Assembly (NCBI GenBank): GCA_964566535.1
Contig: CAZMIO010000005.1
Location: 3,271-67,270 of the forward strand
Length of the DNA: 64,000 nucleotides
Source: an uncultured Methanosarcinales archaeon
GTDB lineage: Archaea > Nanobdellota > Nanobdellia > Woesearchaeales > CAZOXR01
Reading direction: 5' to 3'
Shown here: positions 11,243-16,643 of the stretch, piece after piece
Position numbering within the stretch: the stretch's first letter is position 1
How the letters are laid out: every line of letters starts with the position of its first letter
The notes under the pieces: model-generated
The model's database searches: none
The model's input: the letters and a program-made list of their open reading frames with translations, nothing else
What the model was told of the DNA's origin: nothing
Translations under genes and position numbers: made by a program

Positions 11243-12851
<1,609 letters not shown>

Positions 12852-12863
12852 TTTATAATTATC

Positions 12864-12983
12864 GGGCCCGTGGCTCAATGGTAGAGCGTCGCCCTTGCAT
12901 GATTTTTTCAAGTAAGGCGGAGGCTTCGGGTTCAAAACAACCAGTTGCGTAAAGCAATTGTTGTGAACTTCCCGACGGGTCCA
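12864..12983 (+). tRNA. trnA: tRNA-Ala(UGC) with two introns: 12900-12914 (37/38) and 12937-12969 (59/60, T-loop)
   Basis: Removing both inserts gives GGGCCCG...TCGCC-CT-TGC-AA-GGCGG...TCGGG-TTCAAAT-CCCGA-CGGGTCCA; the T-loop intron forms a canonical BHB (TTCA/TGAA helix, AAA and CTT bulges). Confidence 0.93.
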
Positions 12984-13086
12984 TTCCTAAATTTCATACT
13001 TATCTTTTCATAAAAGATAGCAATTCAATATTTGGAATATTGAATGAAGGGTTGATTTACATTGATGAGACCATGCATAAATTAAG

Positions 13087-16052
13087 ATCCAAACTATTAG
13101 GTGGATGGCTTGGCTCAAATAGAGATGAAGGGTGTGACAAGCTACATTATGCCCCGGCTAGATGCACGTAATCTTTGAACCGGGGGTCCCCGAATCTGAC
13201 TTCAGAATAAATCCGGAAGGATGTTGAACGCAGGGAATTGAAACATCTTAGTACCTGCAGGAAAAGAAATCAACGAGATGCTGTTAGTAAGAGCGACTGA
13301 ACACAGCACAAGGCAAACTGAATCTTTTGTTGAAAGACAAAAGAGATGTGGTGTTAAGACCTTTCTTTATTTCCTCTTTTGGGAACCTGAATTTCTCTGG
13401 AAAGAGAAACCTTAGAGTGTGATAGTCACGTAAGGGTAACTAAGAAGGAATTGAGAGGTATCTTGAGTACTATTCACTGGATACTGAATAGGAATATGGG
13501 AGGCATTAACTTCCAACCTTAAATATTATTTGAGCCCGATAGCAAACTAAGTACAATGATGGAAAGCTGAAAAGAACCCTTAACAGGAAGTTCAAAGAAC
13601 CTGAAACCTAATAGTGATAGTGTGGTACGGCTCTACGGAGTTGTGCCGTGCGTTTCGAATAACGTGCCAGGGAGTTTGTTCAAGTGGCAAGGGTAAATAA
13701 AATGTACCCGAAGCGAAAGCGATAAGCCTGCAACTTGTGAGAGGCAGCGTATGAAAGTGCGTGGAGTCACTTGGGCAAGACCCGAAACCGGACGATCTAA
13801 CCCTGAGTAAGGTGAAGCGAGGGTAAAACCTTGTGGAGGCCTGAAGAGGTTCTACGAGCAAGTGTTCTTCTAACTTGGGGCTAGGGGTGAAAAGCCAATC
13901 GAGTCCGGTGATAGCTGGTTCCTATCGAAATTGGCTGTAGTCAAGTCTTAAGCGAGATAACTTAAAGGGTAGAGCTACGGATTGGGGGTTTAGGTTTCGA
14001 AAGAGATCGATTCTCTGTCCAACTCCGAACTTTTAATTATTGTAGACCTTAGGAAACGGCGGCGCGGGGTAAGCCTGTGTCGCGAGAGGGGAACAACCCA
14101 GACTATGGTTAAGGTCCCAAAATATCAGTTAAGTGTTAAAGGGTGAAAGGTGTCTATTGTCGAAGACAGCGAGGAGGTTGGCTCAGAAGCAGCCACCCTT
14201 TAAAAAGTGCGTAACAGCTTACTTGTCAAGATAATAGGCCCTTAAAATGGACGGGGCTAAACTGATTACCGATACCATAGACATGCTAACAGCATAGTAG
14301 TAGATAGGCATTTTTTAAGGGCAGAAGCTCCTTTGCGAGAGGGTGTGGACCTTAAAGAAATGAAAATCCTGGCGGTAGTAGGATCATAGCAGAGTGAGAA
14401 TCTCTGTCACCGAAAGGGCAAGGGTTCCTTGACAATATAAATTAGTCAAGGGTTAGTTAGTCCTAACTATGCTCATAAATTGAGTAATGGGAAAGGGAAA
14501 CAGGTTAATATTCCTGTACTATCTAAGTATGTGCGGCAACGCAAGTTTAATTTCTATCTTTTTGGGGTAAGCTGACAAATGATCAAGTTTGCTAACTAAA
14601 ACAGATAAGGGGAGATTGTAATAATGAGAACCTTATCAAATTTAGGAATGGTGTTCTTATGGGACATTCAGCCGATATCTAGAAATCTTAAAAAAGGAAT
14701 TAAAATAAATCTTAGATAACTATACCCAGAACCAGCACTGGTGCCCCTGGGTGAGAAGCCCAAGGTGTGAAGGTGTAATCCGATTGAGGGAACTCGGCAA
14801 AATAGCCCCGTGACTTAGGTATAAGGGGTCCCTGCGATTGTAGCAATGCAATTGCAGGGTGCAATTACAAAGGGGGTCCGACTGTTTAACAAAAACTTAA
14901 CTGACTGCTAGCCTGTAAAGGTGCGTATAGTCAGTGACGTCTGCCCAGTGTCAGTACTTTAAGCTCGGTTTCAACTGAGTGAAGAGCTGATAAACGGCGG
15001 GAGTAACTATAACTCTCTTAAGGTAGCGTAATACCTTGTCGTTTGATTGACGACTTGCATGAATGACGTAACGAGATCCCTTCTGTCCCCAATTGGAATC
15101 CTCTGAACACTCTTTACTGGTGCAAAGGCCAGTGATCTCCAGTGGGAAGCGAAGACCCCGTGAAACTTTACTACAACTTATTGTTGCGATGTGGGTTTTG
15201 ATGTGTAGTGTAGGTGGAAGTCGCTAAAGCTTGGTCGTCAGGTCAAGTGTAGACAACAATGAAACACCACTCTTCAAAACCTACGTTGCTAATCTCGTAA
15301 GAGAAACAGCGATAGGTGGGTAGTTTGGCTGGGGTGGCACCCTGTTGAAACAATATCAACAGGACCCTAAGGTTGGCTCAAGCGGGTCAGAAATCCGCAG
15401 TAGAGTGCAAGAGCAAAAGCCAGCCTGACTGGATTCATAATAAGATTGAATTCAGACAAGAAATTGTGGTCTAGCGAACCTCTAAATCCTCCTTAATGGG
15501 GGTTAGAGATGACCGAAAAGTTACTCCGGGGATAACAGAGTTGTCGCGCCTGAGAGCTCATTTTAGTTCTGAGCGGCAAAAATCTTTTTGGATTTGACTC
15601 TGTAGTCAAAAGTTTTCCAGTAAGTTAGCTATAGCTATAGAACTAAGAGCTTATCGACGGCGCGGTTTGCTACATCGATGTCGGCTCCTCCTATCCTGGG
15701 CGTGCAGAAGCGCCCAAGGGTGCGGGTGTTCACCGATTAAAAGGAGTCGTGAGCTGGGTTCAGAACGCTGTGAGGCAGTTTGTTTGATATCTACTGGAGA
15801 TGTCAGTGTCTGAAGGGAAGGAAGCCATAGTACGAGAGGAACTGGCTTTCGAAGCCTCTGGTCTACCGGTTATCTGATAAGGTACGCCGGGCAGCTACGC
15901 TTTATAGGGATAAGTGCTGAAAGCATCTAAGCACGAAGCCCTCCTTGAAAAGAGACACTATAGAACTCGAGAAAAATACTCGTTTAATGGAATCGGTGTG
16001 TAAGTACCAAGCTTCGGCGAGGTATTCAGCATGCGATTTCCAATCGTTCATC
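13087..16052 (+). rRNA. rrl: 23S rRNA containing one BHB intron
   Basis: GAATTGAAACATCTTAGTA, GGGATAACAG, CGATGTCGGCTC, GAGCTGGGTT, AGTACGAGAGGAAC (sarcin-ricin loop); ends inferred from the processing stem. Confidence 0.97.
15562..15652 (+). other. 91-nt ORF-less BHB intron in 23S helix 89
   Basis: Central helix GCTC(15556-59)/GAGC(15647-50), bulges ATT and TTA, intron stem TTAGTTCT/AGAACTAA; excision restores GAGCTCAT-ATCGACGG. Confidence 0.9.
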
Positions 16053-16223
16053 CTTAATTTATGCATGGTTTTTCATTTTTTTCTAAAACCATTTATGATA
16101 TAGTGGTAGCTATATTGTAATTGATATCTTACGTTAAAACTGCTCACAGATGGTCTTAATTTAGAATTTTACCCAGCTCAAAATAGAAATAGATTTATAT
16201 GAACACACTCACCCGACATAGAT

Positions 16224-16643
16224 ATGGCAAGATTATATAAAAATATGGAGATCTTTCAATTAAGCTATTCATTATGTTTAGATATACACAGAATGTTGGA
16301 TAGATTTCCTGAAAAAGAGAAAGATAATATTATATCTCAGATGAGAAGATCTGCGACATCAGTACCTTTGAATATTGCTGAAGGTAGCGTTAAGAAATCT
16401 CAGAAAGAGTTTCTTAATTTTCTAGGTTACTCTTATGGTTCTGCTAAGGAACTTGATGTTTTGCTTTCTATGTCTAAAGATCTTAATTATATTTCTGTTA
16501 AGGATTATGAAACCCTTTTTGGAAAACTAGATATGTTGATGGCTAAGTTGTTTGGCTTTATGAAAAATATTGAAGGAAGGTTTGAGAATAAAAAAAGGTT
16601 TTTTACCAAATATAAAGGAGAAAATGATATCGTTAGGGATTGA
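16224..16643 (+). CDS. Four helix bundle protein (23S rRNA IVS protein / Avd-like family)
   Basis: FPEKEK...SQMRRSATSVPLNIAEG...EFLNFLGYSYGSAKELDVLL signature. Confidence 0.9.
   Translation: MARLYKNMEIFQLSYSLCLDIHRMLDRFPEKEKDNIISQMRRSATSVPLNIAEGSVKKSQKEFLNFLGYSYGSAKELDVLLSMSKDLNYISVKDYETLFGKLDMLMAKLFGFMKNIEGRFENKKRFFTKYKGENDIVRD

Follow-up and report, generated by a model that had tools for sequence, protein, structure and literature searches.

A probable bulge-helix-bulge intron without an open reading frame in the helix 89 loop of an archaeal 23S rRNA gene, at a site occupied in several archaeal groups

Introns with bulge-helix-bulge (BHB) boundaries have been known in archaeal rRNA for decades. 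The 23S introns of Desulfurococcus, Staphylothermus and Pyrobaculum studied by Kjems and Garrett are reportedly BHB-bounded and located in conserved parts of domains IV and V; some measure about 55 nucleotides (nt) and have no open reading frame (ORF). These introns are said to be spliced and released as stable circular RNA, and the larger ones reportedly carry LAGLIDADG homing endonuclease genes. Small ORF-less hairpin BHB introns (<~50 nt) occur in 16S genes of Thermoproteales (Jay & Inskeep 2015, PMC4496867). In the large-subunit (LSU) rRNA genes of DPANN archaea, BHB introns accompany group I introns (Nawrocki, Jones & Eddy 2018, PMC6125680). The text and Table 1 of the latter study place only the group I introns (1923, 1931, 2500 and 2593) and do not mention helix 89. 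Here, we analysed a 64,000-nt stretch of contig CAZMIO010000005.1 (assembly GCA_964566535.1), hereafter the window, and identified a 91-nt insert in the apical loop of helix 89 of its 23S rRNA gene. The insert is very probably an ORF-less archaeal BHB intron lying between U2477 and A2478 (E. coli numbering), which would be excised by the endonuclease EndA and whose exons would be joined by RtcB.

An earlier reading of the letters alone (the original prediction) had placed a 91-nt insert at 15562-15652, in helix 89 near U2477/A2478, and our data confirm both its extent and its location. The 23S gene aligned end to end with the Rfam archaeal LSU model except for a single surplus, which is exactly these 91 nt. 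The gene, the insert and the surrounding helix are as follows:

13077..16062 (+), 23S rRNA gene hosting the insert, full length (Rfam RF02540, LSU_rRNA_archaea, 2567 bits, model positions 1-2987)
15562..15652 (+), predicted intron, 91 nt, 34% G+C (LSU covariance-model alignment)
15545..15550 (+), helix 89 stem, 5' strand CGCGCC, pairing with 15659-15664 (Rfam consensus structure, fold)
15659..15664 (+), helix 89 stem, 3' strand GGCGCG (Rfam consensus structure, fold)

At 'gAGcuCa[2]UcGAC' the model has 2 nt and the window 93 nt in the Rfam alignment, and the region 15380-15820 aligned to model positions 2391-2741 with posterior probabilities near 1 except between 'gAGcuCa' and 'UcGAC'. According to the Rfam structure line, this is the 7-nt apical loop of helix 89, which is closed by a G-C and an A-U pair. 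Comparison with the annotated E. coli 23S gene, whose helix 89 loop reads GAGUUCAUAUCGAC, placed the insert between U2477 and A2478 of the standard numbering; the reference copy used (2903 nt) runs one position behind that numbering, with A2451 at 2450.

The same 91 nt were found without a single change in four independent assemblies of this organism, each 99.1-99.7% identical to the window (NCBI GCA_030751555.1, L100; JGI 3300036767 and 3300035203, L101 and L107; ENA ERZ27245254, L103), which excludes an assembly artefact. Nothing specific speaks for an artefact or for a dead rRNA pseudogene apart from the metagenomic origin of the window. Against them stand the full-length model match of the 23S gene (2567 bits), the score of the 16S gene (1444 bits) and the presence of just one rRNA operon in 203 of 208 complete Nanobdellota genomes (preprint 10.64898/2026.05.13.725050). 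Together, these two explanations are barely credible.

The boundaries of the insert form a strict hBHBh' motif, with two 3-nt bulges on opposite strands and the 4-base-pair (bp) helix GCUC/GAGC between them. Read directly, positions 15554-15655 are GA-GCTC-ATT-TTAGTTCT...AGAACTAA-GAGC-TTA-TC, and the motif consists of the following elements:

15554..15555 (+), outer helix h, 5' strand GA, the native loop-closing pairs (E. coli G2470, A2471; sequence, Rfam structure)
15556..15559 (+), central 4-bp helix H, exon strand GCUC (E. coli 2472-2475; sequence, fold, covariation in 74 sequences)
15560..15562 (+), 5' bulge AUU, predicted cut 15561/15562 (sequence, fold; the cut gives back the consensus)
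15563..15570 (+), inner helix h', 5' strand UUAGUUCU, lengthened by the fold to 15574 (sequence, fold)
15639..15646 (+), inner helix h', 3' strand AGAACUAA (sequence, fold)
15647..15650 (+), central helix H, intron strand GAGC (sequence, fold, covariation)
15651..15653 (+), 3' bulge UUA, predicted cut 15652/15653, with A15653 equivalent to E. coli A2478 (sequence, Rfam alignment)
15654..15655 (+), outer helix h, 3' strand UC (E. coli U2479, C2480; sequence, Rfam alignment)

The outer helix is made of the loop-closing pairs 'gA'/'Uc' of helix 89 itself (Rfam structure line); it has 2 bp and is followed by the helix 89 stem. The inner helix has 8 Watson-Crick pairs and extends to 12 bp, and in a constrained fold the 5' bulge has 3 nt with 0 nt opposite. 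Both strands show the same order of helix, 4-nt central strand, 3-nt bulge and helix, a handedness shared with the BHB motif of tRNAs. If both bulges are cut symmetrically, each after its second nucleotide, the product is GAGCUCAUAUCGACGG, which is the Rfam consensus with its 2 loop nt and also equals the E. coli loop. The predicted joined exons are GAGCUCAU/AUCGACGG, the longer predicted exon-exon junction is ...GTCGCGCCTGAGAGCTCAT/ATCGACGGCGCGGTTTGC..., and the predicted circular-intron junction is ...GAACTAAGAGCTT/TTTAGTTCTGAGCGG.... Thus, the strict motif that had been proposed (4-bp GCTC/GAGC, ATT and TTA bulges, 8-bp stem, GA/TC) agrees with the sequence and the fold, and the claim that these cuts restore the consensus is upheld by the Rfam alignment.

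An unconstrained RNAfold prediction of 15540-15670 gave the 4-bp helix, the 5' 3-nt bulge and the 12-bp intron stem, with z = -4.2 relative to shuffled sequences. As evidence, the BHB motif alone was rejected: a scan of the window that allowed G-U pairs and spans of up to 400 nt found about 2,000-2,100 matches per shuffled window, about as common as in the real one. The probability that 12 intron-dependent Watson-Crick pairs arise by chance at fixed ends is about 6e-8 (our own arithmetic, assuming uniform base composition). The motif is more than a chance match because it sits exactly at both insertion ends in a universally conserved loop and recurs with covariation, as described below.

The content of the insert is in line with an ORF-less intron. 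The original prediction had described it as lacking an ORF; no stop-free stretch of at least 35 codons is present in the 91 nt, and no second copy of the insert was found in the window. A role as C/D sRNA host, like that of the haloarchaeal tRNA-Trp intron, was considered and rejected, since no C box (RUGAUGA) was seen on reading the intron sequence. Group I introns are known from DPANN LSU genes (PMC6125680), and one of the related loci described below (L070) carries a group I intron (Rfam, 51.7 bits) at another site, upstream of its helix 89 intron. However, the 91-nt intron by itself had no Rfam match even at E <= 1, and the RF00028 group I core was matched neither by the window (gathering score) nor by the intron (E <= 1). 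Moreover, 91 nt are too short for a catalytic core, and the boundaries form a BHB instead. A self-splicing intron of group I or group II, whether intact or as a remnant, is therefore a practically negligible possibility.

We scanned GTDB species representatives and JGI metagenome contigs with a 3'-junction pattern (GRRC NN ATCGAC, 13 N, ACNTCGATGTCGGCT) that an uninterrupted gene cannot match. The scans gave 25 and 74 loci, respectively, and 97 of these are archaeal 23S genes with an insert at exactly the 2477/2478 bond. Besides the window, BHB inserts at this site were thus found in 24 GTDB species representatives and 73 metagenome contigs. Two pattern matches were discarded: L023 is a chance match in non-rRNA DNA, and L055 holds a 23S of bacterial type that has a variant loop and no insert. 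By record label, the GTDB loci belong to Woesearchaeota (10), Nanoarchaeota (4), 'uncultured Methanosarcinales' (4), Geocrenenecus (2), unclassified archaea (2), Altiarchaeales (1) and Heimdallarchaeota (1). The bond is occupied in DPANN, Altiarchaeales, Heimdallarchaeota and Geocrenenecus-type Thermoproteota. L001, L007, L009 and L025 are titled 'uncultured Methanosarcinales archaeon', yet their rRNA resembles Woesearchaeota and Nanoarchaeota sequences; L001, for example, does not differ from Woesearchaeota L021 in the helix 89 region, and its 16S is 87.5% identical to that of the window. On this resemblance, the organism label or binning of these four contigs looks doubtful.

The original prediction had not recognized the site as a standard one. 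In a search that covered older subscription literature thinly, we found no paper that names the helix 89 loop or position 2477 as an intron site, and none on a recurrence across phyla; in sequence data, however, the site is recurrent, with 97 other loci.

The loci comprise 78 distinct exon-intron-exon sequences, of which 74, including that of the window, were analysed after four with a wrong 5' anchor had been removed. Their inserts range from 23 to 426 nt, are mostly 23-44 nt long, and are largely unrelated in sequence:

23-44 nt, 59 distinct sequences
61-91 nt, 6 distinct sequences, of which the window's 91 nt is the longest
162-426 nt, 9 distinct sequences

The intron of the window is homologous to two others of like size, L036 (84 nt) and L007 (87 nt). 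The three have AGUUAGCWAUAGCU in common near the 3' end and differ in their closing stems. No convincing ORF or LAGLIDADG remnant was found in any helix 89-site insert, up to 426 nt, so that the LAGLIDADG-bearing allele which the original prediction proposed to look for did not emerge. Because no such allele was found at the site, its suggestion of a degenerate remnant of a homing intron can only be inferred.

Despite the divergence of the inserts, the central helix is formed by 4/4 pairs in 74/74 sequences and is purely Watson-Crick in 68 of them, and registers slid by 1-4 nt gave 4/4 pairing in 0/74. Four exon variants occur (GCUC, GUUC, GUCC and GCCC), and each is met by a complementary intron strand:

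Exon GCUC with intron GAGC, count 31
Exon GCUC with intron GGGC, count 2
Exon GUUC with intron GAAC, count 35
Exon GUUC with intron GGAC, count 4
Exon GUCC with intron GGAC, count 5
Exon GCCC with intron GGGC, count 1

Exon position 2 and intron position 3 are C-G in 34 sequences and U-A in 40, with 0 mismatches (Fisher p = 7e-22, a value that ignores shared ancestry, so that there are fewer independent events than sequences). The association between exon and intron is a fair test, because the pattern accepted all four GRRC tetramers regardless of the exon. In addition, the intron interiors fold far better than shuffled sequences (median z = -4.4), and a closing helix of at least 4 bp lies beside the core in 77% of the introns versus 18% of the shuffles. 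A strict 5' bulge like that of the window is present in only about a quarter of the sequences, and many have 1-2 nt opposite the bulge (3x1 or 4x1 loops). 'Relaxed' BHB substrates are handled by broad-specificity endonucleases (PMC3239211, PMC5829648), and, judged by their predicted loops, the 3x1 and 4x1 sequences are relaxed substrates of that kind.

These data also bear on whether the 91 nt might be kept, so that the mature ribosome would have a helix 89 lengthened by an expansion segment. In favour of this, the fold shows the insert as a long hairpin in coaxial stacking with helix 89. However, an expansion segment gives no reason for the 3-nt/4-bp/3-nt geometry or for exon-intron covariation over largely unrelated inserts of 23-426 nt; only excision explains both, and retention is therefore unlikely. 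A retained insert would also sequester four universally conserved loop nucleotides. Moreover, helix 89 has its tip next to uL16, in the corridor by which tRNA enters the A site and to which orthosomycins bind, and a protrusion of about 40 bp would clash there. We consider an expansion segment highly improbable.

Several points weigh against an excised BHB intron. Firstly, the nearest-neighbour minimum free energy (MFE) structure pairs the UU of the 3' bulge with the exon GA (-32.7 versus -29.4 kcal/mol, minimal context), a preference that arises because the 3' bulge starts with UU; we infer that the native closing pairs of helix 89 and enzyme binding favour the BHB form over this alternative. 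Secondly, the outer helix has 2 bp only and is followed by a 3x3 internal loop. Thirdly, the scan pattern demanded GRRC..ATCGAC, which biases the family sample to canonical 3' junctions and leaves it with no denominator. Finally, EndA and RtcB were not found by Pfam among 30 ORFs scanned in the 64-kb window.

The remaining genes of the window nevertheless offer evidence of BHB splicing in this organism. The operon is ordered 16S, spacer tRNA and 23S on the + strand, and the following features are relevant:

11350-12810 (+), 16S rRNA gene (Rfam, 1444 bits)
12864-12983 (+), spacer tRNA-Ala(UGC) with two BHB-type introns (Rfam at the 29-bit threshold, unspliced)
12900-12914 (+), anticodon-loop intron of tRNA-Ala, 15 nt, bulge-helix-loop form
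12937-12969 (+), T-loop intron of tRNA-Ala, 33 nt, between positions 59 and 60, strict hBHBh' with central helix UUCA/UGAA
7299-7383 (+), tRNA-His(GUG) with a 13-nt anticodon-loop intron

Removal of both introns from tRNA-Ala gave a perfect 72-nt tRNA-Ala(UGC) cloverleaf, and ARAGORN detected the gene only then. In its intron mode, ARAGORN puts the tRNA-His intron elsewhere and calls the gene Asp(GUC). All three insert-bearing tRNA and rRNA genes of the window carry BHB-type introns. Because tRNA-Ala and tRNA-His do so, BHB splicing is expected to be active in the organism, which, to judge from these genes, must have a splicing system that accepts non-canonical positions. Moreover, the primary transcript that contains the 23S already needs BHB splicing, because the tRNA-Ala of the same operon is intron-bearing.

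The flanking DNA has 33-39% G+C and the rRNA about 45%. Neighbouring genes are archaeal and encode Kae1/TsaD, LonB, S-adenosylhomocysteine hydrolase, NAC, an Lrp/AsnC regulator and many glycosyltransferase and sugar-nucleotide functions. Among 16S genes from contigs with a Woesearchaeota label, including those of metagenome-assembled genomes (MAGs), the identity to the 16S of the window reaches 87% at most. On this basis we treat the host as a probable Woesearchaeota-like DPANN archaeon, and the 16S together with Kae1, LonB and NAC fits the DPANN host originally predicted. Exactly the same Kae1 sequence, encoded just downstream of the 23S in the window, occurs on 15 public contigs, including a Tara Oceans scaffold and MAG GCA_030751555.1, which indicates a marine organism that has been assembled repeatedly. 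It is present in the Tara Oceans sample SAMEA2623295, in JGI 3300036767, 3300035203 and 3300022225, and in ENA ERZ27245254.

Two further features border the 23S gene. Downstream of the 23S, at a distance of 160 nt, a 139-aa ORF (16224-16643, +) overlaps with the kae1 start and belongs to PF05635, '23S rRNA-intervening sequence protein' (E = 3.9e-30). Members of this four-helix-bundle family were originally discovered within intervening sequences of bacterial 23S; the ORF is kept beside the 23S in all strain-level contigs (L100-L107). The 23S processing stem (13057-13080 / 16053-16077) forms a perfect helix of 18 bp (ACCAUGCAUAAAUUAAG/CUUAAUUUAUGCAUGGU and neighbours) with no bulge beyond one of 2 nt. 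In its minimum-energy cofold a canonical BHB is absent, whereas many archaea have one in this stem.

In the mechanism that we propose, the intron-terminal GAGC would pair with loop nucleotides 2472-2475 (GCUC) in the precursor and sequester them. The native pairs G2470-C2480 and A2471-U2479 would form the outer helix and the 8-12-bp intron stem the inner helix, and the resulting structure, stacked on helix 89 as a long hairpin, would offer two 3-nt bulges 4 bp apart. The tRNA-splicing endonuclease EndA would cut after the second nucleotide of each bulge, and RtcB would ligate the exons to restore the universal 7-nt loop GCUCAUA and would probably circularise the 91-nt intron. Excision, exon joining and a stable circular intron are established behaviour of archaeal BHB introns (PMC4496867, PMC3326292, PMC7714728). 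The original prediction had also held that every ribosome from this operon depends on splicing, which is plausible because 203 of the 208 genomes mentioned above have a single rRNA operon. Both this dependence and the release of a circular intron may reasonably be expected from what archaeal BHB introns are known to do.

A different outcome would be that EndA excises the insert and the exons are not religated, so that the mature 23S consists of two fragments held together in the ribosome, like those produced by bacterial intervening sequences. The DNA cannot tell a nicked loop from a ligated one, since the loop sequence is kept either way, and unusual archaeal 23S topologies (circular, permuted) have been documented (PMC12918454, PMC7758197). 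However, the intron-bearing tRNAs of the organism must be ligated by the same enzymes. In addition, all archaeal rRNA BHB introns studied so far are, to our knowledge, spliced with exon ligation. There is thus only a small probability of fragmentation, and excision followed by exon joining is the outcome that we favour.

As an instance of its class, the BHB intron of the window is ordinary. The site as a whole makes a useful system, owing to its recurrence across phyla without a homing endonuclease, the minimal sizes of the inserts and their location in a functional core. At least 74 distinct archaeal 23S sequences from several phyla, that of the window among them, have an insert at this one phosphodiester bond; all the inserts are ORF-less, and the shortest have 23 nt. 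They provide a natural series for the minimal substrate needs of DPANN splicing endonucleases, as strict and relaxed 5' bulges both occur, and for the origin and persistence of ORF-less BHB introns. Helix 89 lines the A-site tRNA path beside the peptidyl-transferase centre. If splicing is confirmed, every large subunit of this organism must pass EndA and RtcB before native helix 89 forms; DPANN archaea probably have a single rRNA operon. A further-reaching hypothesis, which we regard as rather unlikely, is that the helix 89 loop (2477/2478) is a cross-phylum hotspot of BHB introns kept without a homing endonuclease, reflecting a very old intron and/or repeated non-homing gain, and that the intron serves as a maturation checkpoint. 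With the outer helix, one central strand and half of each bulge supplied by the exon, a hairpin with four complementary bases would be enough to make a substrate. Under either origin, helix 89 would be kept non-natively paired by the intron at its A-site-corridor end up to a late stage of large-subunit assembly. rRNA annotation would also gain, since such inserts break LSU alignments and primers; the intron-bearing tRNA-Ala, overlooked by a standard tRNA finder, holds a similar lesson for the annotation of DPANN genomes.

Additional observations concern other loci occupied at this site. The longer inserts L016 (261 nt), L086 (260 nt), L026 (238 nt) and L070 (426 nt) have a conserved core in common, AAUCCGU-hairpin-ACA..ACACUCGGC-stem-GCCUCG...AUGGCAGA.AGCGA...CGAG...UUGCGAAGC, with compensatory changes in at least two stems, no ORF and no Rfam family; it may be an undescribed structured RNA carried by BHB introns. 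L048 (9889-10767; Geocrenenecus-like, also L018, L019, L071, L079, L092 and L097) has two introns at most about 30 exon nt apart in the peptidyl-transferase region, and its 23S gene spans 5243 nt. The first intron directly follows GGGAUA (E. coli about 2449-2451) and contains a 76-codon ORF, and the second, of 324 nt and without an ORF, is at the helix 89 site with central helix GUCC/GGAC. An apparent single intron of about 866 nt in the Geocrenenecus-type loci was rejected as a 5'-anchor artefact that merges the 324-nt helix 89 intron with the separate intron near 2449-2451. In L001, L003, L005, L014, L016, L020 and L021, BLAST alignments to the rRNA of the window break at 23S ~1949 (near E. 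coli 1923-1931) and 16S ~721, which appears to indicate further intron sites.

The insert of the window can be compared with several known systems. The intervening sequences of bacterial 23S rRNA (helix 25, helix 45) likewise form an extra hairpin at the tip of a 23S helix and are removed post-transcriptionally, but they occupy other helices, have a plain long stem with no BHB, are cleaved by RNase III and are not religated; the insert studied here lies in the helix 89 loop of an archaeal host and is bounded by a BHB. The classical 23S introns appear to have other insertion positions, and none is known to us at 2477/2478; unlike the larger classical 23S introns, none of the alleles found at the helix 89 site has a homing endonuclease gene. 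The BHB introns noted in DPANN LSU rRNA (PMC6125680) share the host group and the gene with the intron described here. The small introns of Thermoproteales 16S genes (PMC4496867) resemble it in being ORF-less, in consisting of a hairpin with a BHB core, in interrupting highly conserved rRNA and in their presumed excision by EndA. However, they belong to hyperthermophilic Thermoproteota and measure <~50 nt, whereas the intron of the window has 91 nt and is located in 23S helix 89 of a low-G+C marine DPANN archaeon. Archaeal tRNA introns share the motif and presumably the enzymes, and the T-loop intron of tRNA-Ala in the same operon is likewise strict hBHBh'; the host RNA and the consequence differ, as it is the functional core of the large subunit that is interrupted here.

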